Shown: in pieces, positions 3,348 to 56,765 of the stretch
Layout: every line of letters begins with the position of its first letter
How positions within the stretch are numbered: position 1 is the first letter of the stretch
Source: Candidatus Doudnabacteria bacterium CG10_big_fil_rev_8_21_14_0_10_41_10
GTDB lineage: Bacteria; Patescibacteriota; Doudnabacteria; UBA920; 2-01-FULL-50-11
Reading direction: 5' to 3'
Assembly: GCA_002773695.1 (NCBI GenBank)
Contig: PFAJ01000006.1
Span: forward strand, 1 to 56,765
DNA length: 56,765 nt
The notes under the pieces: model-generated
What the model saw: only the letters and a program-made list of their open reading frames with translations
The model's database searches: none
What the model was told of the DNA's origin: nothing
Position numbers and translations under genes: made by a program

Positions 3348-3428
3348 ATACCTATAAAATTTACTCTTTTTAAGACTTACGGGATTGAGCCAAGTTCAGA
3401 AACCCTCCCCCACAAAAGGGAAAAGAAT

Positions 3429-5510: not shown

Positions 5511-6838
5511 TTAGTTAAATTTCTCTGATTCAATAAATATAAAATTCCGAAGCTGAAAAACATTATGTAGAAAGGATAAATAGGCAAAGCGTATCTTGGG
5601 ATGCCATGGAGCGCTGAATAAACCGCGATCATATATACCAATATCGTGTAAATCGGAATCAACTCCCTCCAACTTCTCCTCGACTGTATAATAGCGTAAA
5701 TAACGATTCCAAAAAATACCCAGTAAGCTAGCCTGACCCCTAAAATAATTAGCGCTTTAACCGCTTCTGGCAAGTTTTGATATTTTGAAGGGTCTGAAAA
5801 CAACCCTTGAACACTGTTAAACGGAAAAATAGGTGCATGCATTTTTAAAAATTCTATTGGGGGGACCACTAGCAAGTATCGCAACGGAGCGTCTTTGATT
5901 TCATTCATTGCTATCCTTCCAACCTCGTCATTTATTTCCTGTTGGCTCAACCCAAAATTATCAAGCTCTGTTAGTTTTTGACCATAATCTCCTTCCTCTA
6001 TTTCAAATCGATTGTATTCACCAAACATTTTCTGTGCAAAATAGTCACCCAGGATGTTTGCGACAAATACTTTCGGTAGATCAGAATCTTTTATCCGCAA
6101 TCTTTGCACCGCGAAAAATATTGTGGGGCCGGACTGAGTTGAAATAGCAAATTCGTCAAAATGTTTTTTGTTTCTAATCATCCATGGCGCGACAACCGCT
6201 CCAAACACTAAAATAAATACCAATCCTCCCAATAAACTTTGTTTCAGTTTTTTTCTGCCAACAACCAAAATGACGACTATCAAAAAAATCGGTAAGTACA
6301 AAGTCACCGAACGAGTTAGCGTTGCCATGCCAAGAATTAATCCGGCTATGCCATACATCCACAATTTATCTGTTTTCAAACTTGAAACCAATAAGTGAAC
6401 AAAACCCAACAATAACAAGGTAAACAAAATTTCTGTAAATACCATGCCGGCATGCATAGCGAGCGGATAATAAAGCGCTACGATTATCGCTGTCAGACGA
6501 GCTAACAATTCTTTTTGAAATATAGCCTTTGCTAGAAAATAAGAAACCAAACAAATCCCAACAAAAAGTAAAATTTGGATTGTGTAAACAACATTTACAT
6601 TGGGCCCGAAGATAGTATAGATTGCGGCTAAAAAAAATGGATATCCAGGGTCACGACGGGAATTTAACTGGCCATTGTCGGAAAAAGTTCTGTCTTCCAC
6701 TAAAGAATTTGCTAAGTTGCTGTAATGGAGCCCGTCACCTAATAATTCTTGGTCCCAAAAGAATAACGAAAAAAAACCGGCCACTAAAAATGCGATAACA
6801 ATTAAAACTATTAAATAATTTTTTTGAGATAACGGCAT
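5507..6838 (-). CDS. GT-C type membrane glycosyltransferase (ArnT/PMT-like)
   Basis: 443-aa ORF with about 10 or more hydrophobic helices. A DPGYPFF-type motif follows the first helix, as in GT39/GT83 enzymes. Confidence 0.55.
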   Translation of the reverse strand: MPLSQKNYLIVLIVIAFLVAGFFSLFFWDQELLGDGLHYSNLANSLVEDRTFSDNGQLNSRRDPGYPFFLAAIYTIFGPNVNVVYTIQILLFVGICLVSYFLAKAIFQKELLARLTAIIVALYYPLAMHAGMVFTEILFTLLLLGFVHLLVSSLKTDKLWMYGIAGLILGMATLTRSVTLYLPIFLIVVILVVGRKKLKQSLLGGLVFILVFGAVVAPWMIRNKKHFDEFAISTQSGPTIFFAVQRLRIKDSDLPKVFVANILGDYFAQKMFGEYNRFEIEEGDYGQKLTELDNFGLSQQEINDEVGRIAMNEIKDAPLRYLLVVPPIEFLKMHAPIFPFNSVQGLFSDPSKYQNLPEAVKALIILGVRLAYWVFFGIVIYAIIQSRRSWRELIPIYTILVYMIAVYSALHGIPRYALPIYPFYIMFFSFGILYLLNQRNLTK

Positions 6839-31567: not shown

Positions 31568-34500
31568 TTAGTCGCTAATTGTAATCGCGGTTGAAGTGGC
31601 AGCTCCACCCAAGCCAGCGACCAAGTAACCGTTGTACCACTGCTTGCTCGTTAGAGAAGCGGCGGCTTGACTCTCGTCAAGATTTAGGTCAGACCACACA
31701 AAGTTACCTTGGTTGTTGACTGTGTAAACAGCCGCTGGATCACCACCGGTATCGTTGGTTGTGGTCGCGGTGTCACCAAGCAAGCTGGTAGACACTGCGT
31801 CAGAGCTGGTTGTAAAGCCAGTCACAGTCATCATCAAATCGACTACAGCGGTGGAACCAGAACCTACTGGTAACCATCGTTTGCCGTGAGATTGACTGGA
31901 TGAGATCGCCAAGTTCCAGGTTTCTGTGCCGTCAACCAGGTAATCACCGTCAGCGTCCAAGTCAGACAACTGGCTGCCTGTGGTAATGCTTCCGCAACTG
32001 CCGGTACAAGACTGCAGTTTGGTGTAAGCATTAGTCAAGACTAGTCCAGATGTTGAGGCTGTGGCGTAAGCTAGACGGTAGACACCGATCTGGCCACCAA
32101 CCGCGGAAATCTTCGTGCGGTGCAAGGTAGCAGACGGGGTCAAGCTGGTTCCCGGGTTCTCGACAACGACTGAAGGTACAGCCTTGTGCAAGATAATCGC
32201 GGAACCAGTGGAGTCGGTGTAGGTAATGGTTGCGGCTGTGTTCGAGCCGGAGCCAGTGGCAGTCCAACCAGTGGTTGTATTGCCATAGGCGCCCAAACCT
32301 ACTTTGATGTCGGCATTGGCAGTACCAGGTTGGTTTGTGCCAATATCAACAATGTCTCCAATTACGCTTAACTTGATAGATGTAGCATCTCCGCCTTCAG
32401 GAACAGACAATGCTCCCTTAGTTAGGTTTATTGTTGTGATGGCGGCGCTTAGGTTGTAACCGGAAGCGTTACCAATAACTACACCGTCAACTTTCAAGAA
32501 CATTTTTTCAACTTGATCATATGCTCCTGCGGCAGTGCCGGTTAAAGCACCATCGACAACGTTAACGGTTAGTTTGGTAATATCTACATTTTCGTTATCA
32601 GCTTTCAATTTAACTTCAGACAAGACAACACCGCTGGTGCCGTGGACCACTAACCGTGACGCGGGGTTGTCACCGTGCACGTTAACGGTCAAGGTTCCGG
32701 CAGCGGCAATGGTCAGAAGAGCGCCGTCGGAAGCAGTCAAAGTGACTGTAGCGCGGTTTCCGGTATCAACTCCGTAAGCAACGACAGAAGCGTTAGTCGC
32801 GGAAGTTGTGTCGGTTAGACCAAAGGCCGATACTTCGCCCGCGTTGGAGTTAGAGCCAATGTCAGTGTACAAATTCAAAGATACCGAGGTCCCTTTGGTA
32901 ACAACCAAAGGAGAACTCAAGGCAAATGAAGAAGTGGCGGCAGCGCCAGAAGTTGGCGCGGCGTTAATTGGATCTAGCGCAACGCCATCGGCTTTCAAGG
33001 TAAGATTGTTCAACTTACCGGTTGAAGAAGCGCGAATGGCGATAGTGGTGATTCGAATGTCTTCACCAGAATCAGTGGCATCCAAAGTCCAAGCGCCGGA
33101 CAACACGCCGGTGTCATTGGTGACAACGGTCTTGTTGGTTGGCACGGAATCTTTGGTTACTGTCAAGATCGCGGCTTTTACCGTCTGAGTTGAAGCGGAA
33201 ATGCTTGAGCTCGGGGTTGGAGTAATTGTTTGACCAGTTACTTCACCTTTGGCGGTAATGGCTGAACTTGGAGTAAAGCTTACTGTAATGGTGTCGTTGG
33301 TTGCCCAACCACCGCTTGTCGGAACAGTACCGATAACTTGGTAGTGGGAGACTCCTACCGGAACGGTAAAGGAATCGGTTAACGCAACGGTCAAAGCAAG
33401 AGCGACATCTACCGGACCGGCAACAGTGGCGCCGTTAGCATCTACCAATCTGACTGATTCTAACCTCTGTCCATTTGTAGTGGAAGAAGCTGTGGTCAAA
33501 GTCAAAGCGGTGATTTCAACCGGCTCACCTTTTGCTTCGAATTCGAATGCGCCCAAGACTTGGTTATCACCAACGGTGATATTTTCAGCACCAACGGTGC
33601 TGGACCTCCCTACGCGCAAACTTCCGGTAGAAATTGTGAATTGGTTGTCAGACAATACTGGGTTGGAGTTTACGGCCGCGCTTTCCCCGGTATAAGTTGG
33701 GGTAATGTTGGCGCCATAGGTTTGACCAGTGACCAAAAGATCAGTGGTTCTCCAGATACCCAAGTCAATGGTTCGAGCGGAACCGTCAACAACATCGGAT
33801 TTTACCAAATATTGGCTGGTCTGACCTTTCTTGATCAACTCGGCTGGGAAAGCAAAGCTAACAAAACTATTGTTAACAGTCCCATCAGCCAAGAAGGTAC
33901 CATCTCGGTACAACTTAAGGTTTGCAAGATCAGAAGACAAAGACGCGCTACCCTGTTGGTAAACCTTCACTTGAGAGAAGGTTACGTCTTCCGCGGATCC
34001 TGCAGCTACCTGGAATGAGAAGAAGGTATAAGCGGTCTTTCCTACTTCAATAGAGGTAGAAGTGGCATTGGTATAAGAACCGCGAGATACGGTTGCTGTA
34101 CCAATTACGATAGAAGTGTTGATAGTCATTTTATTACCAACAACCGGGAAACTGCCGTTTACCGAACCGCCTTTTAGAGTGATTGAGTTTAGGGCTAACG
34201 TTGGCTCTTCACCGGCACCAGGAGATGTCGCCATATTTCCCGCTAACATAACCGATTTGGTTGTGCCGTTTGGAATGGTCAAGTCATCTGTGAAGTTGGC
34301 TGTGTGTGAAGAGTTGAGTGTCTTTCCAGAGTCATTGATAGCCGCGTTGGTTGAGAGATCGATAATATCGAGACTGGAGAAAGAAGAGTCCTGGGAAATC
34401 CCGGCTCTCTCTACTACCCAGTTGTCGATAACAACATCACCACCAGTGGCGGTAAGGTTGACTTTAGTAAACGGAACCCGAGCCGCAGACTTTATAGCAA

Positions 34501-35395
34501 TGCCTGAAGCCGGGGTGTCGGAAGCAAGTGACACGGTCAAAGTACCGGTAGAAGATACTGGTGGAGTACCAGGATCACCCGCGACACATAGATTGTCACC
34601 AGCAGTGTAACCAGAGGTAGTACCGTCAACGACGGCGACCCACTGATAACCTGAATCCAAGAAACAACTGGCTGAAGGAAAACCTTGCTTCATTGTTTCG
34701 GATGTAATTGCCCAGACTGTGCCGTTGTCGTTCACGACAGAGCCTACGCGATAACCCAAATTCGCGCCAGCAGCAAGTGCCATATCGGCCGCGTTTGCTG
34801 GAACGACTTTCGCAAAATCAAAACCCCAGGAGTTGAAAACTGCCATAGTGGCAATTCCGGACTTCCCTGTGATTGTAACTTTGTAAATAGTTCCATTGTC
34901 ATTTACCAAAGATCCGGCCGGGTGAGCAGCGGTAGCACTGTCGATGTTTTCTCCCTGGGGTACCCCCGAAAGATCACCGGTCAATGCCATGTCAAAGCTG
35001 TAACCCAAACCGAAAAATACAGAAGGGGTGGTGAATCCGCGTTTTTGACCTTCGGAAACCATAAAAATGGTTCCGTTGTCATTTACCAAACTTCCATCAG
35101 CAAACATAACGTTTGCTCCTTGCGGAAGCGCAAGGTCGGCGGAATTGGCTGGAACTACTTGGTTCCAGTCATATCCGTGAGAGAAAAAAGTGTTGGCAGT
35201 TGGGTATCCTAGTCGCTGTCCGTCCATGATTTTAAAAACCGTGGAACCGGAAAGAACCAAAGTACCGTTTGGATGTGCGTCTACGGCTTGCGCAGGCACA
35301 ACCAACAAAACGCCGAATGTCCACACCACTACAGAAATCGCTAACCCAAATGCAAGAACCTTGTGCAAGGTGCTTGCAGTGTAAGGTGTATTCAT
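31568..35395 (-). CDS. giant secreted cell-surface protein (S-layer/adhesin-like), Thr/Ser/Gly/Ala/Val-rich
   Basis: 1275-aa ORF with an N-terminal signal/anchor ending VVPAQA|VDA. Four tandem repeats of about 57 aa are followed by about 1000 aa of beta-type low-complexity sequence. A terminator lies downstream. Confidence 0.85.
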   Translation of the reverse strand: MNTPYTASTLHKVLAFGLAISVVVWTFGVLLVVPAQAVDAHPNGTLVLSGSTVFKIMDGQRLGYPTANTFFSHGYDWNQVVPANSADLALPQGANVMFADGSLVNDNGTIFMVSEGQKRGFTTPSVFFGLGYSFDMALTGDLSGVPQGENIDSATAAHPAGSLVNDNGTIYKVTITGKSGIATMAVFNSWGFDFAKVVPANAADMALAAGANLGYRVGSVVNDNGTVWAITSETMKQGFPSASCFLDSGYQWVAVVDGTTSGYTAGDNLCVAGDPGTPPVSSTGTLTVSLASDTPASGIAIKSAARVPFTKVNLTATGGDVVIDNWVVERAGISQDSSFSSLDIIDLSTNAAINDSGKTLNSSHTANFTDDLTIPNGTTKSVMLAGNMATSPGAGEEPTLALNSITLKGGSVNGSFPVVGNKMTINTSIVIGTATVSRGSYTNATSTSIEVGKTAYTFFSFQVAAGSAEDVTFSQVKVYQQGSASLSSDLANLKLYRDGTFLADGTVNNSFVSFAFPAELIKKGQTSQYLVKSDVVDGSARTIDLGIWRTTDLLVTGQTYGANITPTYTGESAAVNSNPVLSDNQFTISTGSLRVGRSSTVGAENITVGDNQVLGAFEFEAKGEPVEITALTLTTASSTTNGQRLESVRLVDANGATVAGPVDVALALTVALTDSFTVPVGVSHYQVIGTVPTSGGWATNDTITVSFTPSSAITAKGEVTGQTITPTPSSSISASTQTVKAAILTVTKDSVPTNKTVVTNDTGVLSGAWTLDATDSGEDIRITTIAIRASSTGKLNNLTLKADGVALDPINAAPTSGAAATSSFALSSPLVVTKGTSVSLNLYTDIGSNSNAGEVSAFGLTDTTSATNASVVAYGVDTGNRATVTLTASDGALLTIAAAGTLTVNVHGDNPASRLVVHGTSGVVLSEVKLKADNENVDITKLTVNVVDGALTGTAAGAYDQVEKMFLKVDGVVIGNASGYNLSAAITTINLTKGALSVPEGGDATSIKLSVIGDIVDIGTNQPGTANADIKVGLGAYGNTTTGWTATGSGSNTAATITYTDSTGSAIILHKAVPSVVVENPGTSLTPSATLHRTKISAVGGQIGVYRLAYATASTSGLVLTNAYTKLQSCTGSCGSITTGSQLSDLDADGDYLVDGTETWNLAISSSQSHGKRWLPVGSGSTAVVDLMMTVTGFTTSSDAVSTSLLGDTATTTNDTGGDPAAVYTVNNQGNFVWSDLNLDESQAAASLTSKQWYNGYLVAGLGGAATSTAITISD
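34586..35275 (-). repeat. four tandem ~57-aa coding repeats at the N-terminus of the surface protein
   Basis: Residues 41-270. Each unit reads xxGSLVNDNGT(I/V)(F/Y/W)x(V/I)...G(F/Y)(P/T)(T/S)xxxFxSxG(Y/F)x(W/F)xxVVPANxADxALxxGxN. Confidence 0.75.
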
Positions 35396-39119: not shown

Positions 39120-39364
39120 TGAATTACAAAACTCCGATTTCATGTCATTACAAGGATCCTTGGGTGTTGTTAATATCCTTCGAGCGAGGCGCTAGCCGAT
39201 TCGAGAAGTCGCAGATTTCGAGCCGAGTCGAGAAAATCCCACAACGCAGTCCTCGACTTCCTCCCTAGGCGGACAAGCCTCTCGAACAATAATATTTATC
39301 TTGCCCCCCAATCCAGTCCGGGGTGCAATGACACTAGGGGGTTTTCAAAAAGTTTCGTAATTCA
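39120..39364. mobile_element. MITE-like inverted-repeat element, copy 2 (full length)
   Basis: Ends are TGAATTACAAAACT...AGTTTCGTAATTCA, with sub-terminal GTCATTACAA...TGCAATGAC. It aligns end to end with the reverse complement of copy 4 and ends 20 nt upstream of the 39100 start codon. Confidence 0.75.
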
Positions 39365-39384
39365 TATTCTATCAACAGTTTAGC

Positions 39385-43873: not shown

Positions 43874-43993
43874 TGAATTACGAAACTCTCAAGCCGCTAG
43901 TGTCATTGCGACCCCGGACTGGATTGGGGGGCAAGATGAATATTATCGTTCGAGCGACTTGTCCGCCTAAGGAGGAAGTCAAAAACTGCATTC
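43874..43993. mobile_element. MITE-like element, copy 3 (half copy, truncated)
   Basis: TGAATTACGAAACTCTC...GTGTCATTGCGACCCCGGACTGGATTGGGGGG...CGACTTGTCCGCCTAAGGAGGAAGTCAAAAACTGC matches the first half of copy 4. Similarity stops about 20 nt before the stop codon of the receiver gene. Confidence 0.65.
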
Positions 43994-44012
43994 TGCCGGG
44001 CATATTTTATTT

Positions 44013-46238: not shown

Positions 46239-46272
46239 AAATAAATTTACATTAGAACTTACTCATTCACTA

Positions 46273-46519
46273 TGAATTACGAAACTCTCTGAAAACCCCC
46301 TTAGTGTCATTGCGACCACGGACTGGATTTGGGGGACAATCTGAATATTATTATTCGAGCGACTTGTCCGCCCAAGGAGGAAATCAAAAACTGCGTTGTG
46401 GGATCTTCTCGACTCGGCTCGAAATCTGCGACTTCTCGACTCGGCTAACGCCTCGCTCGAAGGATATTAACGATGCCAAGGATCCTCGCAATGAGATTAA
46501 ATTGGAGTTTCGTAATTCA
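46273..46519. mobile_element. MITE-like inverted-repeat element, copy 4 (full length, opposite orientation to copies 1-2)
   Basis: Perfect ends TGAATTACGAAACT...AGTTTCGTAATTCA, each flanked by TA. Sub-terminal pair GTCATTGCGA...TCGCAATGAG. Two TTCTCGACTCGGCT modules. Confidence 0.75.
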
Positions 46520-49419: not shown

Positions 49420-50658
49420 ACTGATAGTACACAACTAATCGCCAGCCGTTTGCCCTGGTTTTACCTGGCTAAAAGCCTTTGGAACAAGGCAAGGAAGCGG
49501 CCTAAAATAATGGTAAAGTCTTCACACCTAACCATCAACCTTAAAGACATCGCTTCCTTAGTATGGTCAATATACAACAGAGTTATCAAGAGCTCAAAAT
49601 CCGCTTTGGGCCCAAGACAGCCAGGGAATTGCTGCAGGATTGCCTAAAGCAAAACGACAATAATATATCAAAGGCTGCCAGAAAGCTAAAATGCAACAGA
49701 AGGACGGTTATGAAAGCGCTGGTTAAAAAAGAACAAAACAATCTAATGGACGCAAAGCACATACCTAACAGTCAGCCCAGGCAGACTAAACCGGAAATTG
49801 AGGCTCTTGTCCTTAAGTGGCGGGAACAGACCAAACGTGGCAAAAAACGACTACGTAAAATCTTTTTAGACGAAGAAAAAATCACTCTGCCGATATCCAC
49901 CATAGGAAAAATTCTGAAAAGGAACAATGTTAAACTGCGGTACAAGAAACGGAAACACAGAAGCAGTAATCCGCAGGCTTATAATTTTTCCAGCCTCATG
50001 CCATTTGAGAAGTTCCAGTATGACACAAAAGATTACCTTGATAAACAGGCCTTAAAGTAGGAAGCTTACAATCATGTCATCACGCGCGGCCTGCCCCATT
50101 ACCAGTGGACCTTTATTGATGTTAAAAACAGAATCAGATTTCTGGCCTGGTCGTACGAGCTGACCCGAAACTGCGGCATGGCCTTTGAATTGTTGGCTAA
50201 GAGCTGGCTTACTGCCCACGGATTAGCATAAGACCAAATCGAGGCGCGAAGCGATGGCGGAGGAGAAGTTGGGGTTTTAAGGAAAAGCTTTTTTGAAAGA
50301 AACAACCAGCTCTGGTGGCAACTTTTAGGCATAAAGCGCAAAATTATCAGAAAAGGGCATCCGGAGGACGACAGCTTTGTCGAACGATCGCATTTGACTG
50401 ACGATGAAAAATTTTATCTGCCTTTTTTAAGCCAAATTAATTCTGAACAGGAATTATTACAGCGTGGTATGTGGTGGCAGGACTATTACAACCGGCTGAG
50501 AGGACACCAGAGTCTGAATGACCTATCGCCCTACCAGTACTTATAATCTAAAAATTATATCCTACCCGAATCTTTTTGCCGTTTCCCTTCCGTTATCTTG
50601 GACACTATTTGCGTGCAGCCAGAGGTTATTGACTGGTCAAAAGTTGTGTATGATCAGT
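49420..50658 (+). mobile_element. insertion sequence with rve (DDE integrase-core) transposase, IS481-like, decayed
   Basis: The terminal inverted repeats are ACTGATAGTACACAACT (49420-49436) and AGTTGTGTATGATCAGT (50642-50658). They enclose a single transposase reading frame. Confidence 0.7.
49563..50546 (+). pseudogene. rve-family transposase interrupted by two in-frame stop codons
   Basis: One continuous frame: HTH N-terminus (ISKAARKLKCNRRTVMKAL), FQYDTKDY (D), TAG at 50058, YQWTFIDVKNRIRFLA, TAA at 50229, EARSDGGGEV (D), DDSFVERSHLTDDE (E). No frameshift. Confidence 0.7.
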
Positions 50659-50694
50659 TTGACCATGACCATTTAGAAGTGGATAACATTGGAT

Positions 50695-50731
50695 AAAATA
50701 ATAAAAAATAAACCGGTAATCCGATTTATTT
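50695..50731 (-). terminator. rho-independent terminator after the DUF1905 gene
   Basis: On the minus strand, AAATAAATCGG atta CCGGTTTATTT is followed by TTTTATTATTTT. Confidence 0.55.
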
Positions 50732-50748
50732 TCGTCTATAAAATTCGA

Positions 50749-51051
50749 CTAAACCCGAATCTCGATTGAATAAGAAATCTTCTGTCCAGCGACGATCCCT
50801 TTTTTCTTCCGAATTTCTGCTTTTAGCGGTAAAAGATACTTCCCGGATTTTTTATCTGGAAAAATTGAAGTATTCCAGCTGATTTTATCCACCCCCACCT
50901 TTACCGGAAGCGATCCCCAACCTCCGGCCATCTCCCCAAACAATTTTTTAATCTCTTGTGACTGCTTTTTGGAAACATTTACAAAATGCCATGCTGTCTT
51001 GCCAGGGTAAATCCAAACCTTTCCTCGAATCTGATACAAAGGATTCTTCAT
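50749..51051 (-). CDS. DUF1905 domain protein
   Basis: The ATG at 51051 (MKNPLYQIRGKVWIYPGKTAWHFVNV...) avoids the overlap with the VIT1 gene that the longer ORF-track version creates. WGSLPVKV...SIFPDKKSGKYLLPLK matches DUF1905 as I recall it. Confidence 0.6.
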   Translation of the reverse strand: MKNPLYQIRGKVWIYPGKTAWHFVNVSKKQSQEIKKLFGEMAGGWGSLPVKVGVDKISWNTSIFPDKKSGKYLLPLKAEIRKKKGIVAGQKISYSIEIRV

Positions 51052-51100
51052 AATTTTCTTGGTTTTGAACCCTCCACGCACGCTAATAATTTTTAAAAAA

Positions 51101-51799
51101 TTAGCTAAATTTCGCCGCAATTCCTCCGACAATATAACCAACCACCAGGGCAACTGTCCCAAGTGATAAGATTCGTCCACCAGCTTTAAACCAAGATCCT
51201 TTTGTATACTTGGTTGTTGCCACGCCTAGCGCAAACAAACCTGCCAGGGTGACAACGATAGAAACAGGCGTAGCGCGAGGCACTGACAAAATAAAATAAG
51301 CAAATAACGGAACCATTCCGCCAACAATATACGACGCATACATAAATATCGCTTTTTTAAGAGGACCGGTTGAAGGATCTTGGGCAATGCTCAACTCGCG
51401 GTAGGCCATCTCTTTGAGCATAAGTTTTTTATTTTCTGACGCGACTCGTGACATTTCTTGCACGATTTTATTGGGCCACCCGTCTTTAACAAATAAATTT
51501 TTCAGCTCTTCTTTTTCTTCTTTGGGATATTGTTGGATTTCCTCTTTTTCCTCCAAAAGCCTTCTTTGATTGACATCTTGTTCCGAGCGATTCGCCAGAT
51601 ACGAACCAATACCCATAGAAATTGATTCAACCGCGATGATAACCGTTCCCGCCAAAATAACCGTAAAATGATCCTGGCTCCCGATTGCTATACCGGTGAT
51701 TGCTCCAAGGGTCGAAACCATTCCGTCTTCAACGCCGAAAACAACCTCTCGAATAGTCGAACTGCTGGTTGTGTTATGTTGGTGATTATATTTTATCAT
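51101..51799 (-). CDS. VIT1/CCC1-family iron/manganese transporter
   Basis: 232-aa ORF with VFGVEDGMVSTLGAITGIA, an acidic cytoplasmic loop (EEKEEIQQYPKEEKEE) and 5 TM helices. Confidence 0.75.
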   Translation of the reverse strand: MIKYNHQHNTTSSSTIREVVFGVEDGMVSTLGAITGIAIGSQDHFTVILAGTVIIAVESISMGIGSYLANRSEQDVNQRRLLEEKEEIQQYPKEEKEELKNLFVKDGWPNKIVQEMSRVASENKKLMLKEMAYRELSIAQDPSTGPLKKAIFMYASYIVGGMVPLFAYFILSVPRATPVSIVVTLAGLFALGVATTKYTKGSWFKAGGRILSLGTVALVVGYIVGGIAAKFS

Positions 51800-52108
51800 C
51801 AGCTCTAATTAATCAAGTATAAAGAAAATTCTCAAAAATATTTCAATTGTGTAGTGGAACGGTATTTATCTGGAAAAAATTTTTTACCATCGCTCCCCAT
51901 TTTTTGAGTATATTTATAAAAACACCAAAGAGACTTACCCGGAGAAATCCAAACTTTTTTTAATTTGTAAATCGTTTTTTTAGAGTCTTAAACACGCAAG
52001 ATTGTTACCTATTTAAATTATAACATAAAAAAAGATACGACAAATTGCGTAGCTTCTTGCGAGCCGGGCTTCGCCCGGCAAAAGACGGCAAGTGCGTAAG
52101 CCCTAAAC

Positions 52109-53209
52109 TTATCTCACAACCTCATACAACTCCACCGGCCCATCAGACCTTTCCACATTAAATTTTACCCGGCCCAGGGTTTGACCGCGTTGGGTTTTTA
52201 TATACACCCGCCAGGATCCGGGCGGTAAAACGGTTTTTAAAGAATACCCTCGGAAACCCTCACGCCGGCCGCCGATTAAATTAAAAGACAATCTATCTTT
52301 GACAATCCACTTGCCCTGCTGTTCATCGTAATATTGCCATTCATGAACAATCGCGGTGTTCAGTTCTTTGGGCGCGTAAATAGAGCTGAAAACATAGGCG
52401 GGTTGGCCCGGTCGCAGATGAATGCTTCGACCCGGAATTATTTTTTCCAAAAAACTTTCCCGCTCGCCGCGCAAAATATACTGCCCACCGCTTTTCGCGA
52501 TACTATGGTAAACACCGATCTCGCGCATTGCCAGAGGCACGGGAGGAAGAAGGTTGGTAAAATAAAATAAGTTGATAATCAGTAAAATAGACGCGACGGA
52601 AATAGTTAAATATGAACCGTTAAATTTTTCCGCACCCGCGTTTTTTTTCAGAAGCCATGAAAATAACGCGATGTATACTGAGGTTATAGCCCCGGACAAA
52701 ACAAACAATAATGGACTTAGGGAATTGAAGATAAAAGGCAGACTAACAGAAAATATGGAAAGGGTGGCAAAAAAATAAACGCTTAACTGTACTGTGGGCC
52801 GCGCAAAGTGATGCCTCAAAGCGTCATTTGAAATCATGAGCGCTACAAAAGCCAAAATAAACGGCCAACTTACCCAGACGCTTCCGGAAAACCAATAAAA
52901 AATAAAAGAGTTGCTTAACATCCCTCCAAAGGTAAACTGCACCACCAGCGGGATAAACAGCCGGACATATTTGAACCTTTCCGGTAGTTTACCGGCATCA
53001 AACGCGTAAATAAAAATAATAGCGGAAGCGCAAATTACCCAGTAAATAAAAAGGATAATAATGGCGGTGTTGACTTGAATGTTAACAAAGGTAATATAGT
53101 CGCCCAAAAAACCGAAAGCCAAAGTCACCGGCATCAGCCAGCGTTCATATTTGGCGTAAAATTCTTTGACTTTTTGATAATGAAATTTGAAAGCAAAAAC
53201 CCTGCGCAT
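52109..53209 (-). CDS. membrane protein with C-terminal DUF2914-like domain
   Basis: 366-aa ORF with about 7 TM helices, then a beta-rich domain (HEWQYYDEQQGKWIV...GGRREGFRGYS...GSWRVYIKT). The first ~105 nt are duplicated at 54778-54882. Confidence 0.55.
   Translation of the reverse strand: MRRVFAFKFHYQKVKEFYAKYERWLMPVTLAFGFLGDYITFVNIQVNTAIIILFIYWVICASAIIFIYAFDAGKLPERFKYVRLFIPLVVQFTFGGMLSNSFIFYWFSGSVWVSWPFILAFVALMISNDALRHHFARPTVQLSVYFFATLSIFSVSLPFIFNSLSPLLFVLSGAITSVYIALFSWLLKKNAGAEKFNGSYLTISVASILLIINLFYFTNLLPPVPLAMREIGVYHSIAKSGGQYILRGERESFLEKIIPGRSIHLRPGQPAYVFSSIYAPKELNTAIVHEWQYYDEQQGKWIVKDRLSFNLIGGRREGFRGYSLKTVLPPGSWRVYIKTQRGQTLGRVKFNVERSDGPVELYEVVR
53097..53201. repeat. 105-bp direct repeat, copy A (5' end of the DUF2914 gene)
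   Basis: Matches 54778-54882 with only 3 mismatches by eye (TAGTCG[CC/GC][C/T]AAAAAACCGAAAGCCAAAGTCACCGGCATCAGCCAGCGTTCATATTTGGCG...). Confidence 0.85.
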
Positions 53210-53530
53210 ATATTCTCTGTATACCCCGTGAAGATGCGGAGCATATTCTACCAGAGTCGCCCCGCAAAAGCCCCTTCATTAGCCTCTCCTTTAGTGAGGG
53301 GAGATGTCCCGAGCGGAGTCGAGGGGTAGAGACCTTAAAGGGTGATCCGGGATCCAGATGCTATCTTAAAATTTTATTCTTCAAGCTTGCCTGCCTTCCG
53401 TAGCTTTTTGTGAAGGATGGGTCAAGAAACACTTTAAAGTAAGTATAGACTTATTTTACCCATAAAAAAACTCGCTGACTGAAAAAGCCAAACGAGTGCG
53501 GACCCAGCTGGTGGATCGTCTGAGCTGTGA

Positions 53531-54535
53531 CTAGGTGGGGGCAAGGAAGGTAATGACCGCCTTTTCGAACTTCTGGTTCGTGAAGGTGAGCTGTCTGGCA
53601 AAATGTGTAAGCGGCGCAAAAACCAGACTGTAACTGAATGCTTCGCCTGGTAACAGTCCTCTGCTGTAATGATTAGAGCAACCGTTACTCCCCCAGAAAC
53701 TAAAGTCGCCGTCATTCGATCGCAGTTTCAGCCCTTCTCCTTCGTCAGAGACCATGTAGGTATCTTCGCTTTCGGGCTCGGATAGGCAAATCAACTTTCC
53801 CGTACAGCCGTTTCTGTACTCAACCCGGAGCACAAGAGCATTCGTGCCGAGCCGCATACCAACAATCCTCATGGTGGCGCAGCCTTCTAGAGTCTCATAC
53901 ATTAGATGCTGCCAGCTGAATACTTCAATGTAGCTCTTGCTAAGTTGCGGCTCCACGGTGTATTGGAAACCCGCGGAACCGGGCGGCGGAGGGGGCTCTG
54001 CCCGGGGAAACGAGCTGGCGCCAATATCGCTTGGGTGCAGCTCTGCAAACCGCTGGATCTTGTCAGCGTACTGCTTGACCGCTTCCCTGGTAAGGGACTG
54101 CATCTCCTCGCCCGTAACCGGGTGATACTTGTACCCCAGCGGCTGGAGGTCGATTTCCCCGTTAGAGAGAACGATGTAAACATAGCGCGGCTGGCCTGTA
54201 ACGGGGTTAAAATACTCGCCTGCGCCGGGCAGCGAAACAACGTACATCAGAAGCATCCATCCGGTAATAGCGGCGCCGAAGATGAGTGTTCCCTGTTCGG
54301 TGCGCCGGAGTATGAACTTCCAGATCAAGTGTCGCAGGAGCAAAGCGGCGATGGTCATCATCGCCACACTCATCGCGTTCACTAGATAGTCGTTAGTCAC
54401 GCCGACGCCGCGAAAAGTGGACGCGAATTTGCTGAAAAGACCCCACAACATCAACAGGTCCAGAAGCCGCATGCCCGCCAAAACCACCAAAGCGGCAGTG
54501 ACGAGTTTACCCCAATTCTTCGATAGCAAGTTCAT
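53531..54535 (-). CDS. hypothetical membrane protein (4 TM helices plus a ~190-aa Cys-containing beta-rich domain), GC-rich
   Basis: 334-aa ORF. Its ATG overlaps the TGA of the upstream small ORF (ATGA). Composition is clearly GC-richer than the flanks. No family recognised. Confidence 0.7.
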   Translation of the reverse strand: MNLLSKNWGKLVTAALVVLAGMRLLDLLMLWGLFSKFASTFRGVGVTNDYLVNAMSVAMMTIAALLLRHLIWKFILRRTEQGTLIFGAAITGWMLLMYVVSLPGAGEYFNPVTGQPRYVYIVLSNGEIDLQPLGYKYHPVTGEEMQSLTREAVKQYADKIQRFAELHPSDIGASSFPRAEPPPPPGSAGFQYTVEPQLSKSYIEVFSWQHLMYETLEGCATMRIVGMRLGTNALVLRVEYRNGCTGKLICLSEPESEDTYMVSDEGEGLKLRSNDGDFSFWGSNGCSNHYSRGLLPGEAFSYSLVFAPLTHFARQLTFTNQKFEKAVITFLAPT

Positions 54536-54705
54536 CGTTTCTTCCTCTTCTTCTGGATGCCGAGAGCGGCCGCAACGGCGAGAACGCTAAGAAATGTCCC
54601 CGCCAGAAACCATCGGTAAGGGTCACGGTTTTGCTTCTTCGCCCAGAAGGCTAGAGCAAAACCCATCCCCAAGGACAAAAATACAGCCATCACATAGCTG
54701 TTCAT
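54532..54705 (-). CDS. small two-TM membrane protein (57 aa), translationally coupled to 53531-54535
   Basis: Below the ORF-track size cutoff. ATG at 54705 with AGGAGG (54716-54711) 5 nt upstream. MNSYVMAVFLSLGMGFALAFWAKKQNRDPYRWFLAGTFLSVLAVAAALGIQKKRKKR. Confidence 0.6.
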   Translation of the reverse strand: MNSYVMAVFLSLGMGFALAFWAKKQNRDPYRWFLAGTFLSVLAVAAALGIQKKRKKR

Positions 54706-54742
54706 TATAACCTCCTAGAGGCTGGAATGTTCGATTAAACGT

Positions 54743-54771
54743 ATTATAACGAATGTTGATAATCCGGGCAA
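54743..54771 (-). promoter_or_regulatory. sigma70-like promoter for the two-gene GC-rich cassette
   Basis: On the minus strand, TTGCCC (54771-54766) is followed after 17 nt by TATAAT (54748-54743), about 38 nt upstream of the 54705 ATG. Confidence 0.5.
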
Positions 54772-54893
54772 TAACAGTAGTCGGCTAAAAAACCGAAAGC
54801 CAAAGTCACCGGCATCAGCCAGCGTTCATATTTGGCGTAAAATTCTTTGACTTTTTGATAATGAGATTTGAAAGCAAAAACCTTCCTGACGGA
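54744..54893 (-). pseudogene. 5' fragment duplicate of the DUF2914 membrane-protein gene
   Basis: Encodes ...RKVFAFKSHYQKVKEFYAKYERWLMPVTLAFGFLADY, against MRRVFAFKFHYQKVKEFYAKYERWLMPVTLAFGFLGDY in the intact gene. It then diverges and stops at 54744. Confidence 0.7.
54778..54882. repeat. 105-bp direct repeat, copy B
   Basis: See 53097-53201. Confidence 0.85.
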
Positions 54894-54928
54894 AATCCTG
54901 GATTTTTTAACTATCACATCTGACATTT

Positions 54929-55573
54929 TTATTCTCCTACCTGATAACAACCTTTCCATTCGTCAAAAGCCCGCGTGTAACCGTTTTTTTTGAAAATTGG
55001 TCTGATTGTAATAAAAAGGTTATGAAAGATACTGATCTTGTTTTTATCTAAAAGGTCATCGAGTTTTTTTATAAGTTCACCCTTTTTCCACGGAAATTTA
55101 GTTAATGGATATTTGTTTAGCTCCCATTCTAAATATTTATTATAGGGTCTGACTCTGCCTTCCAAAGCAAAAATCGCTTCCAAAAAAAATGGTATTCCTT
55201 CTATAACTTCGAGTTTTGCGGCTTTTTTAAACCCATCCCTCAGATTTTTTTCAACCCTAAAAACCTGATTTATAAAAGCTCCTAAAGCATTGCTAATAAT
55301 CACCTTCTGTTTTTTCTTTGGCATTCTTGCTTTTTCCCGCATAATTTTTTTAATCTTACCCGTCCTGTCAAACAAGGGTTTAAGATGCGCGAAATTATAC
55401 CTATCCCAAACCATTTTTGTGCCATACTCTGCGTGTTTTTTTAATCCGTCTAAAGTAAAAACCCCAATCTCGATTTGAGACTTCTCCCTGTTCCCATACT
55501 TTCGCCTATATAACTGTAAAACTTTATCTTTAACAATCATTTTGGCATCGTAATCCGAGTATTTAGTTTCCAT
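54929..55573 (-). CDS. nucleotidyltransferase-domain protein (KNTase/MNT-like) with helical C-terminal domain; 5' end unresolved
   Basis: The 214-aa ORF starts at METKYSDYD. However, the in-frame upstream codons (to 55678) read NKFQKIIAEVKKDKNVLAFWVDGSRGKK, which is the GS-x-G ... D-x-D nucleotidyltransferase motif, so the real N-terminus lies upstream of the annotated ATG. Confidence 0.6.
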   Translation of the reverse strand: METKYSDYDAKMIVKDKVLQLYRRKYGNREKSQIEIGVFTLDGLKKHAEYGTKMVWDRYNFAHLKPLFDRTGKIKKIMREKARMPKKKQKVIISNALGAFINQVFRVEKNLRDGFKKAAKLEVIEGIPFFLEAIFALEGRVRPYNKYLEWELNKYPLTKFPWKKGELIKKLDDLLDKNKISIFHNLFITIRPIFKKNGYTRAFDEWKGCYQVGE

Positions 55574-55959
55574 CTTCTTACCTCTACTACCATCAACCCA
55601 AAAAGCGAGAACATTTTTGTCCTTTTTTACTTCCGCGATAATTTTCTGAAATTTATTATCTGTGTTTATGATTTTGATTTATACATACTTTTATTATACA
55701 CCCCATCTTTTTTCTAAATCCATAACACTTGAATAATTAAAAAAATTCTTTTCCCAAAATGCAGAATCGCCAACTGCTTTTTTCGCCCAAGTTTCCTTAC
55801 GATTTGGTCGCCGACCTTGCCTCGCCGGAAGGCGGGACGAGCGAGGCGACTGCCTCTTGCTTGCAATTTCCTGTTTGATGGTTTCTGCCGGGCTTCCGCC
55901 AAAGGCGGACAGGCGAACCTGAATTCTATTTATATAGAAACAAAAAATGTCAACTTCTT

Positions 55960-56030
55960 TGGACCTAGGGAGAATCGAACTCCCCTCTCCGCCTTGCAAA
56001 GGCGGCGTCGTACCACTAGACCATAGGCCC
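55960..56030 (-). tRNA. tRNA-Ala (anticodon UGC)
   Basis: Hand-folded. Acceptor GGGCCTA/TAGGTCC with the G3:U70 alanine identity pair. Anticodon arm CCGCC TTTGCAA GGCGG. T arm GGGAG TTCGATT CTCCC. No encoded CCA. Confidence 0.9.
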
Positions 56031-56119
56031 TTAATAATTTAGCGGACCAAATGCTTGTCCACCGAATCCGCCATAGGCGGAGAAGGAGGAAGCTAAGGGC
56101 CCATAGTGGAAAAGCTTTT

Positions 56120-56317
56120 TTAGAAATATCCGAAAAGATGCAAAATTGAACCAATAATAAGTGCCACTCCAAAAAGTTTTAAAAATGTAAACGTCCCACC
56201 CCCGCCAAGATATTTTTCTGCGTCCGGGTCTTGTCCCATAAACCGATAAATCGCGGGCGTATACTTCAAAATTATAAATCCGAGAATTATTACCAGTATG
56301 CTATTGAATATTCCCAT
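56120..56317 (-). CDS. small two-TM membrane protein
   Basis: 65-aa ORF with two hydrophobic helices flanking GQDPDAEKYLGGGG. It lies between the two tRNA genes and has a weak ribosome site. Confidence 0.45.
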   Translation of the reverse strand: MGIFNSILVIILGFIILKYTPAIYRFMGQDPDAEKYLGGGGTFTFLKLFGVALIIGSILHLFGYF

Positions 56318-56507
56318 ATTTTTAATTTTAATTTTTTAGACTTTCCGATGGGTGTGAGAGGACTCGAATCTAAAAATACAATTTTGATACGATTCGCTTA
56401 ATCTTAATAAGGAATCGATGTTGATTTCCCAAACATACCCCCGACCTTAAGTAGCAAATGCTTCGCATGGCGACAGGAGTATAACTCTTCATTATAATTT
56501 AGTCTCT

Positions 56508-56585
56508 TGGTGGGCACGGATGGATTTGAACCATCGACCTTCTCATTATCAGTGAGATGCTCTAACCGGGCTGAGCTACGTGCCC
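56508..56585 (-). tRNA. tRNA-Ile (anticodon GAU), CCA encoded
   Basis: Hand-folded. GGGCACG TA GCTC AGCCCGGTTA GAGC A TCTCA CTGATAA TGAGA AGGTC GATGG TTCAAAT CCATC CGTGCCC A CCA. Confidence 0.9.
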
Positions 56586-56607
56586 AAAATTTTTAACCAA
56601 CTGCCTG

Positions 56608-56647
56608 CCCTCCTTAGTCCTCGATGTAAAATCGAGATGAAGGAGGG
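56608..56647. repeat. 40-nt nested hairpin upstream of tRNA-Ile
   Basis: CCCTCCTT agtc CTCGAT gtaaa ATCGAG atg AAGGAGGG. Confidence 0.6.
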
Positions 56648-56765
56648 AACTACACACCCCAGACTTTCCATACTTTAACAGGTTTTTTAAAACAAGTCAA
56701 AGCAAACGTACTGTGCCACTACCTTGGAAACACTTAGGGTATTCTTAAGATGAGTAATTAAAGAA

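Follow-up and report, generated by a model that had tools for sequence, protein, structure and literature searches.

The locus under study lies in a window of 56,765 nucleotides, which is the whole stretch of Candidatus Doudnabacteria DNA that was analysed, and all genes and features at the locus are read on the minus strand. In the direction of transcription, a 214-aa gene with unassigned product (54929..55573) is followed by a dead open reading frame (ORF; full span 54744-54959), a two-gene cassette and an intact gene for a DUF2914 membrane protein (52109..53209; 366 aa, start MRRVFAFKF; Pfam PF11141, E = 6e-13). The cassette is bracketed by a 105-nt direct repeat, copy B (54778..54882) forming the left junction of the insert and copy A (53097..53201) the right junction. 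The unique part of the insert (53202..54777) measures 1,576 bp and, together with one repeat copy, makes up a unit of 1,681 bp.

The cassette consists of a 57-aa gene (54532..54705) and a 334-aa gene (53531..54535), which overlap by 4 nt (ATGA) and are thus as tightly coupled as an earlier sequence-only reading of this DNA had stated. The perfect AGGAGG Shine-Dalgarno sequence described in that reading stands at 54711..54716, 5 nt ahead of the ATG of the 57-aa gene. The TTGCCC-17-TATAAT motif that it had called a promoter is also present (54743..54771, starting 7 nt past the end of copy B), but it is no more than a consensus match, because eight promoter-like sites were found in the region against 5.7 expected. 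At a distance of 34 nt past the stop codon of the 334-aa gene, an MFE fold (spacer nt 34-68) showed a terminator-like hairpin followed by U7 (53463..53497), which was absent from the output of a simple terminator scan. With a promoter-like site, a strong Shine-Dalgarno sequence, ATGA translational coupling and the hairpin with U7, the cargo is a self-contained operon. Antisense ORFs in the cassette, among them one of 159 aa on the plus strand, were taken as by-products of high GC content, because their length varies among homologues while the sense ORF is full length in most. A structured RNA in the 320-nt spacer downstream of the cassette was dropped as a candidate (no Rfam match; fold z = -0.95). 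The part of the spacer beyond the hairpin (53210..53462; GC 0.46), arriving with the insert, contains an extended -10-like element, TGGTAGAAT (53253-53245), and has a 20-nt exact match to an intergenic region of another Doudnabacteria genome. It ends in the start ATG CGC AGG (53209-53201) now used by DUF2914, the final base of which is the first base of copy A.

The claim that the insert differs in composition from its flanks was borne out. The peak 1-kb GC content of the whole window falls in the insert (0.549; window mean 0.403, SD 0.037), and 53531-53590 contains 32 G+C. GC3 is 0.663 in the 334-aa gene and 0.621 in the 57-aa gene, compared to 0.30-0.51 in the other 46 ORFs of the window, showing that the composition of the insert is foreign at the codon level.

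The two repeat copies, spaced 1681 nt apart, are near-identical, as had been claimed (97% identity), and the three mismatches counted by eye were confirmed at 53103C/54784G, 53105C/54786T and 53184A/54865G. They share an identical core of 78 nt (53106-53183), and no other repeat in 50000-56765 exceeds 40 nt. Both represent codons 4-38 of DUF2914 in the 366-aa numbering. Their proposed roles were also upheld: the 366-aa ORF begins in copy A, which is now the 5′ end of the intact gene, and copy B sits in the dead ORF, where 60 aa can be read from the ATG at 54926 (54744..54926): the native start MSDVIVKKSRISVRK is followed by copy B, 11 out-of-context codons and a stop. Two direct copies of a host segment bracket the insert, one running into the intact gene and the other truncated. 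The edges of homology are sharp, as the 80 nt past each end align no better than shuffles (p = 0.33 and 0.45), and decayed homology beyond the repeat, hinted at by MAFFT, was dropped for this lack of significance. The end of copy B meets the cassette in an abrupt, non-homologous join, and no clear microhomology was seen exactly at either junction.

Search of the insert for known mobility functions revealed no recombinase, its only genes being the 57-aa and 334-aa genes, neither of which gave a Pfam, NCBIfam or PHROG recombinase match. No terminal inverted repeats were found at its ends and no attC-like pair within it, the sole core-site match falling in the 334-aa coding region. An insertion sequence or transposon was rejected (no inverted repeats at the ends, no transposase, a duplication of 105 bp), as were an integron gene cassette (no attC at the cassette end, no integrase in the ORFs scanned, its own promoter-like site), a diversity-generating retroelement (no reverse transcriptase, a repeat at the 5′ end of the gene, mismatches of the types C/G, C/T and A/G) and an integrase-bearing element such as a genomic island, ICE or prophage (only the two genes in the insert).

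The arrangement could also arise from a contig misjoined through a repeat common to two genomes, and several short-k assemblies do break within the repeat (contigs L003, L022 and L024). However, a graph with k = 60/61 or k = 31 has to branch at the 78-nt core, and the breaks coincide exactly with these points; two megahit contigs built with k = 141, which exceeds the repeat length, span both 105-nt copies in two assemblies. The path from the left flank through copy B into the cassette is crossed at 100% identity by 10 contigs from at least eight assemblies made with several assemblers. Furthermore, an independent NCBI MAG carries the 60-aa, 334-aa and DUF2914 genes consecutively (COT91_00595/00590/00585). 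On these grounds an assembly chimera was rejected as extremely improbable. Pattern scans for the empty site and for the repeat core gave no hits in the metagenome_contigs collection, which carries no weight, as the repeat-core pattern does occur in two JGI contigs, L003 and L021, from samples outside that collection. L003 (1,723 bp, with 42-nt overlapping ends) was rejected as evidence of a circular element: each of its ends is exactly a 61-mer that reaches the first variant base outside the core, and because the contig coincides exactly with the unitig that this core delimits in a k = 60/61 graph, it is uninformative on a circular form either way.

The second of these contigs, L021 (JGI sample 3300004208), joins 55961..54778 straight to 53201..52015. 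Precisely 1,681 bp of the window are missing from it, and its two flanks of about 1.08 kb each are 100% identical to the window. A cassette-free site with a single DUF2914 5′ end was found in this sister sample. The 1,681-bp unit is accordingly a presence/absence polymorphism within one Candidatus Doudnabacteria population, the empty allele being known from one 2.3-kb contig, which is also the only contig with the 378-aa form of the protein described below. The single repeat of L021 is a hybrid: it has the base of copy B at 54865 and those of copy A at 53103/53105, so that copy A differs from it only at 53184/54865 and copy B only at the two positions near 53103-53105. Such a hybrid would be expected of the partner of a crossover within the 78-nt core.

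In L021, the 214-aa gene is likewise the upstream neighbour, and the native DUF2914 start opens an intact protein of 378 aa. The last codons of the 214-aa gene hold a GGAG (54937-54934) that serves the native start at 54926; in L021 this start has AGGAG with a 7-nt spacer, overlaps the stop of the upstream gene and has a much better ribosome-binding site than the copy-A start. In the occupied allele, the native ribosome-binding site and start remain with copy B, whose reading frame continues into the insert and terminates after 60 codons. Copy A has acquired the upstream region of the insert with its ATG-CGC-AGG start, and the DUF2914 gene is therefore still intact, with 366 aa in place of 378 aa. 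The arrangement suggests that the insertion restores the gene it enters. Among the 15 DUF2914 orthologues examined, the length is 363-369 aa and most start with M-[KRHYQ]-[RHK]-[VIL]-[FL]. This consensus agrees with the copy-A start, not with the native start, which is 12 residues longer, so that the incoming 5′ end has the look of a genuine DUF2914 start picked up at another site. These data support the view that the native start is the one upstream of copy B and that the present start, upstream of copy A, arrived with the insert. A search for functional literature on DUF2914 found none.

The same observations bear on the polarity of the event, since L021 could be a secondary loop-out deletion instead of the ancestral state. 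If the occupied allele were the older one and the MRR start ancestral, L021 would be a derived deletion between the repeats, that is, a loss and not a gain. The fit of the copy-A start to the orthologue consensus, with the L021 start 12 residues longer, would be in keeping with this order, as would the recovery of the occupied allele from at least eight assemblies and of the empty allele from a single contig, and a deletion through the core yields exactly the hybrid repeat of L021. Nevertheless, an earlier duplication of codons 4-38 would still be needed, so that only the timing of the event would be altered and not its nature; L021 has the better ribosome-binding site at its native start, and three mismatches between the copies fit a foreign copy of 97% identity. 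Loss is accordingly regarded as a possible but rather unlikely account.

No characterised family was found for either cargo protein in Pfam, NCBIfam, PADLOC, PHROGs, PDB sequences or by Foldseek, in keeping with the sequence-only reading, which had recognised none. The 57-aa protein has two hydrophobic segments and a KKRKKR tail, and shares 63-71% identity with four other protein clusters. In the 334-aa protein, Kyte-Doolittle analysis and AlphaFold2 showed three transmembrane (TM) helices (8-44, 49-76 and 80-101), not the four that had been counted; the Pro-rich linker and Cys residues described earlier are both present. The AlphaFold2 model was built from 57 sequences (pLDDT 85.6), an earlier one from 7 sequences being too poor to use (pLDDT 54.6). 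The helices are followed at about 105-166 by a conserved module, YFNPVTGQP...GYKYHPVTGEEM plus a helix, then by a disordered Pro-rich linker (167-190), with a beta-sandwich at 192-330. The positive-inside rule predicts an outward-facing C-terminal part of ~230 residues, made up of the conserved juxtamembrane module and a fast-diverging Ig-like beta-sandwich. Foldseek matches of the 334-aa protein were weak, with TM-scores <0.5 and E = 6e-3 for the best match in the PDB and 6e-4 for the best viral one. Residues 192-330 gave no Pfam match and similarly weak Foldseek hits (E = 6e-4 to 3e-2, TM-scores 0.2-0.45). A viral origin of the cassette was dropped, as no relative was found in viral contigs and the large protein had no PHROG match. 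The juxtamembrane module is common to about 200 uncharacterised clusters with the 3-TM + 'YFNPxTG...HPxTGE' architecture, and larger proteins contain 3-5 copies of its motif. The Doudnabacteria members of this 3-TM + YFNPxTG family carry a hypervariable domain, predicted to face outward, and have a dedicated small partner. The cargo might perhaps form an accessory envelope or surface complex for contact with host cells or phages.

The co-occurrence of the 57-aa and 334-aa pair was also found elsewhere, in four other genomes of the candidate phyla radiation (CPR) with different flanks. The pair is GC-rich in all four (GC3 0.56-0.62 in the large gene, 0.50-0.68 in the small gene), and a 56-60-aa counterpart precedes the large gene in contigs L005, L009, L018, L019 and L026. 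The cargo has six homologues among 5.8 billion clustered proteins, and those with a named source come mostly from other CPR bacteria. In L005, L009, L018 and L019 the pair lies in unrelated, variable neighbourhoods, next to toxin-antitoxin, restriction-modification, RadC, DUF3800 or DinB genes, and one copy adjoins tRNA-Glu. The toxin-antitoxin and restriction-modification neighbours are the sole link to defence, and neither protein matched any PADLOC anti-phage model at E ≤ 1. With the empty site in L021 and these differing neighbourhoods, the cassette is not fixed with the same flanks in relatives. No flanking repeats were found around the pair in the two copies checked (L005 and L009), implying that the repeat is a feature of the present event and not of the cassette family. 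Taken together, codon composition, polymorphism and patchy, non-syntenic cargo indicate that the insert is a horizontally acquired islet.

The structure of the locus points to homologous recombination through about 100 bp, without a mobile-element enzyme. On balance, we lean towards the unit being a recent, Campbell-type insertion in the DUF2914 5′ end that is still polymorphic in the population. Host homologous recombination would have made a single reciprocal crossover between codons 4-38 of the chromosomal gene and a 97%-identical copy of these codons on a circularised fragment of a related strain's DNA. In this donor the two-gene operon would have directly preceded a DUF2914 gene that begins with M-R-R, as is usual in the family. 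The Campbell-type integration put forward in the sequence-only reading is thus supported and fits every structural detail, with circle and donor inferred; no circular form of the 1,681-bp unit was seen, and no cassette upstream of DUF2914 was found in another strain. At 105 bp, the repeat is short as a RecA crossover substrate, which counts against a single crossover. Two studies report that Patescibacteria are naturally competent, keep homologous-recombination genes and exchange genes mostly among themselves (PMC10187176; PMC12455944). A type IV pilus cluster is encoded in the window.

These competence-type pilus genes would fit natural transformation with a linear donor, in which one DUF2914-anchored end recombined and the other end was joined illegitimately, by homology-facilitated illegitimate recombination or a replication template switch, leaving the anchor duplicated. 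The abrupt join between copy B and the cassette is consistent with such an event, and a donor segment of 97% identity is as expected of a related strain. However, homology-facilitated illegitimate events usually delete recipient DNA and seldom duplicate the anchor, neither junction has clear microhomology exactly at its site, and a circle with one crossover gives the duplication in a single step, making this route improbable.

A similarly low probability is given to an integrase-less islet moved in trans, in which the repeats would be attL and attR of a site-specific, tyrosine-type recombinase encoded at another place in the genome or on a helper element and the replacement 5′ end would be carried by the element. 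The position of the direct repeats, where a conserved gene begins, and the restoration of that gene by a start borne on the element are suggestive of this. In other Doudnabacteria, moreover, the DNA directly upstream of DUF2914 differs in every case and is frequently mobile: in one genome it encodes a 672-aa large serine recombinase together with Y1 and IS1595 transposases, and in others a NERD-domain protein or a MutH/methylase/Cas4-like block. Yet no partial DUF2914 5′ copies were found bounding this variable DNA in other genomes, no recombinase was found in the insert, in the gene tables for 11 kb downstream or in 20 further ORFs scanned, and the two other cassette copies checked are without repeats. 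Large serine recombinases are, in addition, not known to leave 105-bp repeats.

Extending the single-crossover insertion to a general mode of spread, the unit would be a minimal recombinase-free mobile cassette, with a 'homing' 5′ copy and a replacement start and promoter, hopping as a RecA-driven circle between competent CPR strains while sparing its target, its cargo forming a surface complex specific to CPR bacteria, with an outward-facing domain that diversifies rapidly, for episymbiont-host or phage interactions; we consider this very unlikely. CPR gene flow is mostly inferred from composition or phylogeny, and here both alleles of one small event are available at nucleotide resolution in one natural population. 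The event, a recent gain or loss of genes through recombination, is of an ordinary kind but cleanly documented; it does not overturn current ideas and is a useful worked example and no new kind of system. The cassette also flags an uncharacterised membrane-protein family worth study.

Regarding the cargo, the confidently predicted beta-sandwich (192-330) may be of the DUF4352/DUF5067/MPT63 type, an Ig-like domain of secreted proteins and lipoproteins, some of them encoded by phages; its best Foldseek matches, though weak, are 1lmi (MPT63), 4eae and phage DUF5067 and DUF4352 proteins. It differs from that type in having three TM helices as its anchor and no lipobox, and there is no sequence match. 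As for the event itself, the two direct copies of a host segment, one of them truncated, and the hybrid empty site are like Campbell integration, as in the lambda model and in non-replicating plasmids with one homology arm, but the arm here is 105 bp, no replicon, recombinase or circle was seen, and the donor is conjectural. SXT/R391 ICEs enter prfC at its 5′ end and bring with them a new promoter and a new start of the coding sequence; similarly, the present insertion lies in the 5′ end of a conserved gene that remains functional through a start and upstream region carried by the element. However, SXT is about 100 kb long with its own tyrosine integrase and a ~17-bp recombination core, whereas this insert has 1.6 kb, no integrase and a 105-bp repeat. 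Cis-mobilisable elements and integrase-less islets are small cargo-only islands bounded by att repeats, and the insert is likewise a small cargo-only island between direct repeats at a gene end; unlike them, it has no helper or cognate integrase that could be found, and the two other copies of its cargo that were checked lack repeats. For the genomic islands and single-gene transfers of groundwater Patescibacteria, competence and homologous recombination are the proposed route (PMC12455944). The insert resembles those islands as compositionally distinct accessory DNA with CPR homologues in a CPR genome, but it is far smaller than typical predicted islands, and both of its alleles were recovered at nucleotide resolution.

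The locus lies entirely on the minus strand and is described here in transcription order. A 214-aa gene (55573-54929) comes first. Downstream of it are a short ORF with its ATG at 54926 and its stop at 54744, the genes for proteins of 57 aa (54705-54532) and 334 aa (54535-53531) and, beyond a 320-nt spacer, a DUF2914 gene of 366 aa (53209-52109; PF11141, E=6e-13). The two middle genes form a cassette bracketed by a 105-nt direct repeat (copy A, 53097-53201; copy B, 54778-54882; spacing 1,681 nt), and the last 6.7 kb of the window contain no other long repeat. The repeat corresponds to DUF2914 codons 4-38; copy A is part of the intact gene, and copy B is contained in the short ORF, where the DUF2914 frame context is lost past GFLADY and a stop follows 11 codons on. 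The copies have three mismatches (53103C/54784G, 53105C/54786T and 53184A/54865G) and an identical core of 78 nt, and their likeness drops off sharply at both ends. The AGGAGG 5 nt ahead of the 57-aa ATG and the ATGA overlap of the cassette genes, both reported in a sequence-only reading of this DNA, are present. The TTGCCC-17-TATAAT promoter claimed there also exists, at 54771-54743, but only as a consensus match, eight such sites being found against 5.7 expected. The NCBI locus tags for proteins of the window are COT91_00585, COT91_00590 and COT91_00595; the 57-aa gene appears to be unannotated in the NCBI MAG, since the tags of the 334-aa and 60-aa proteins (COT91_00590 and COT91_00595) are consecutive, and other gene predictors called it on several contigs.

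Exact look-up of the 214-aa neighbour recovered L021, a 2,266-bp contig (JGI 3300004208) in which 55961..54778 runs directly into 53201..52015. As the sequence-only reading had envisaged for relatives, the cassette is missing and a single DUF2914 5' end is present, although this empty allele is represented by one contig; it differs from the occupied allele by exactly 1,681 bp. The one repeat of L021 has the copy B variant at the 54865 site and the copy A variants at the two positions close to 53103-53105, and beyond the repeat the contig is 100% identical to the window. Its DUF2914 gene is intact (378 aa, start MSDVIVKKSRISVRKVFAFKS) and is preceded at 7 nt by an AGGAG overlapping the stop of the 214-aa gene, which marks the start upstream of copy B as the native DUF2914 start. 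The sister assemblies JGI 3300004106 and 3300004209 resolve the same core in the occupied configuration, making an assembler shortcut in L021 less likely. Alternatively, in the opposite polarity, L021 could have arisen from the occupied allele by loop-out deletion.

An assembly artefact through the repeat, which would make the occupied allele chimeric, was rejected. Megahit assembled the window, at k=141, as a contig of a Candidatus Doudnabacteria MAG (ENA ERZ27293400), and L002, from a second k=141 assembly, has an identical structure; with k longer than the 105-nt repeat, each copy plus both its flanks is bridged by real 141-mers. Ten contigs, which come from at least eight assemblies (megahit and JGI among them) and include a SPAdes-style NODE contig, run from the left flank through copy B into the cassette at 100% identity. 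Three other contigs of the locus, L003, L022 and L024, break inside the repeat, exactly at forced de Bruijn graph branch points: L003 begins 61 nt ahead of the first variant base on the downstream side of the core, and its end lies 61 nt beyond the variant base on the upstream side. The overlapping ends of L003, considered as a sign of a circle, are thus graph branch points and no evidence for one. The independently assembled L002 and L021 share end points at window positions ~52015/52016 and 55961, that is, 94 nt beyond the DUF2914 stop and at the tRNA-Ala 3' end, suggesting further strain-variable junctions on both sides of the DUF2914 locus.

The GC content of the window is 40.4%, and its highest 1-kb value (0.549, about 3.9 sd over the mean) belongs to the segment starting at 53501. 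GC3 is 0.663 and 0.621 in the two cassette genes compared to 0.30-0.51 in the other 46 ORFs, indicating that the cassette differs in codon usage and not in amino-acid content. Windowed GC and GC3 thereby bear out the GC-richness claimed for the cassette, and the hand count of 32 G+C in the 60 nt of 53531-53590 was correct. The cassette-distal spacer (53210-53462) has a GC of 0.46, inside the host intergenic range. A second compositional outlier of the window is a 1,275-aa ORF (31568-35395, minus; GC 0.49, GC2 0.51), which has a weak K1-lyase_N match under the Pfam cut-off, adjoins Wzy_C and TPR genes and probably encodes a large surface protein.

Comparison with 15 DUF2914 orthologues (363-369 aa, most of them 61-73% identical) showed that most begin with M-[KRHYQ]-[RHK]-[VIL]-[FL]. 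The start of this type is the MRRVF upstream of copy A and not the native start, which is 12 residues longer; judged by this pattern, the incoming DNA carried a seemingly genuine DUF2914 start and some upstream region. It is 97% identical over codons 4-38 and unrelated further upstream. The region upstream of the copy A start carries an extended -10-like element, TGGTAGAAT. Around this element, a 20-nt exact match, GTAGAATATGCTCCGCATCT, links window positions 53232-53251 (minus) with positions 3922-3941 of L005, a contig of another Doudnabacteria genome, where it is intergenic and upstream of a MazE-like gene. The match (22 nt with flanking identities; blast E=6e-5 in about 0.25 Mb) includes a TAGAAT -10-like box and does not occur in viral_contigs, and it suggests a promoter or leader common to both genomes. 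In the simplest history that we infer, the donor would have been a related strain with the two-gene operon just upstream of DUF2914; a fragment reaching from the operon through the spacer to codon 38 would have circularised, and the circle would have recombined once with the resident DUF2914 gene. Neither the donor arrangement nor the circle was found.

The DNA directly upstream of DUF2914 is different in every Doudnabacteria genome examined (L012, L014, L015/L016 and L009). It often has a mobile or defence-like character, examples being a large serine recombinase of 672 aa together with Y1 and IS1595 transposases, a NERD-domain protein and a MutH/methylase/Cas4-like block. The 5' side of DUF2914 may therefore be a recurrent recombination hot spot. 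In L015 (also L016), 37-nt palindromic repeats (ATAATAACATCCTTATAATCTYRAGATTATAAGGATG; 3358-3394 and 5947-5983) surround a 2.6-kb block with Y1 (IS200/IS605-type) and IS1595 transposases, which ends 18 nt ahead of the DUF2914 start.

Neither Pfam nor PDB contains a match for the 334-aa protein, in keeping with the earlier failure to recognise a family. In a set of 5.8 billion clustered proteins it has six homologues (48-60% identity); a source is named for two of them, both Doudnabacteria MAGs. The gene occurs at three loci in GTDB representative genomes. Among 1.84 billion representatives, a profile search matched 199 clusters, one named member of which is from an Acidobacteriaceae MAG; they have in common N-terminal TM helices and a 'YFNPxTGxP...G[YF]xxHPxTGE' module, itself without a Pfam or PDB match, and their C-termini are various. 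The module motif occurs 3-5 times in proteins of 500-900 aa. An AlphaFold2 model of the 334-aa protein (57-sequence alignment, pLDDT 85.6) comprises three long helices, two short hairpins plus a helix, a disordered Pro-rich linker and a beta-sandwich. The linker had been noted before; the four TM helices proposed earlier were not confirmed, three hydrophobic helices being counted. The Foldseek matches were Ig-like and all weak (MPT63, Listeria 4eae, phage DUF5067 and DUF4352 lipoproteins). An outward-facing position of the C-terminal ~230 residues is predicted from the positive-inside rule (K6, K10; K73, R77, R78). Mean identity among homologues is 76% over residues 1-160 and only 36% over residues 201-334. 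Taken together, the conservation of the membrane part, the dedicated small partner and the fast evolution of the outward domain suggest a putative accessory envelope complex that would interact with the outside (host cell, phage).

The expectation that the two genes would recur together was borne out: a 56-60-aa partner precedes and overlaps the large gene in the loci reaching upstream, with 63-71% identity where measured. In four other genomes, GC3 is 0.56-0.62 for the large gene and 0.50-0.68 for the small gene, the large gene being GC-rich in all four; the pair contrasts sharply with its flanks in L005 and belongs to a larger GC-rich block in L009, another CPR genome. The neighbourhood is different in every other genome: in one the pair adjoins tRNA-Glu, RadC, Phd/ParE, MazE, DUF3800 and a restriction system, in another it comes after NUDIX and restriction-modification genes, and elsewhere it adjoins DinB, ArsR-type HTH and GIY-YIG genes. 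No flanking repeats surround it in L005 and L009, the two copies checked. A hairpin motif, GATTCCCGCCTRCGCGGGAATGACA, is common to intergenic DNA of these two contigs (L005 3880-3905; L009 9078-9103, just after the cassette). At 60% identity, L027 22-738 encodes the closest relative of the 334-aa protein; it breaks off at 238 aa, within the beta-sandwich region, and may be a decaying copy.

Elsewhere in the window, intergenic repeats of about 85-250 nt at 39120-39366, 43911-43995 and 46271-46519 form a family with 87-89% identity; the copy near 39.2 kb has the opposite orientation to the others. All copies are located between genes of the type IV pilus (pilins, prepilin peptidase, T2SSE ATPase). 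The family has no Rfam match; a MITE-like element is one possibility, a shared region with a regulatory or small-RNA role another. Near the contig end, tRNA-Ile(GAT) and tRNA-Ala(TGC) (55960-56030 and 56508-56585, minus) stand in the order typical of an rRNA spacer, with a 65-aa hydrophobic ORF (56120-56317) between them; no 23S gene follows, and the contig ends just beyond.

Within the insert, no recombinase or transposase (gene calls; Pfam, NCBIfam, PHROG), terminal inverted repeats, attC-like site, RNA family match, significant fold or viral relatives (PHROG, viral_contigs) were found. The gene tables of the neighbouring 11 kb and 20 further ORFs list surface-polysaccharide genes, a type IV pilus cluster, VIT1 and DUF1905 and no integrase. 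An integrase-bearing island, an IS element and an integron cassette were rejected, as was a DGR, which the mismatch pattern and position exclude. The testable features agree with a Campbell-type integration product and a horizontally acquired islet, supporting the acquired-DNA interpretation of the sequence-only reading. The insert also fits what two reports describe for Patescibacteria, namely natural competence, retention of recombination genes and frequent transfer within the group (PMC10187176; PMC12455944). The finding is real and of an already known kind; what makes it valuable is that both alleles are cleanly resolved and that it points to an unstudied membrane-protein family. SXT-type elements restore the 5' end of their target gene, and the insert does likewise, but it lacks all of the SXT-type machinery.
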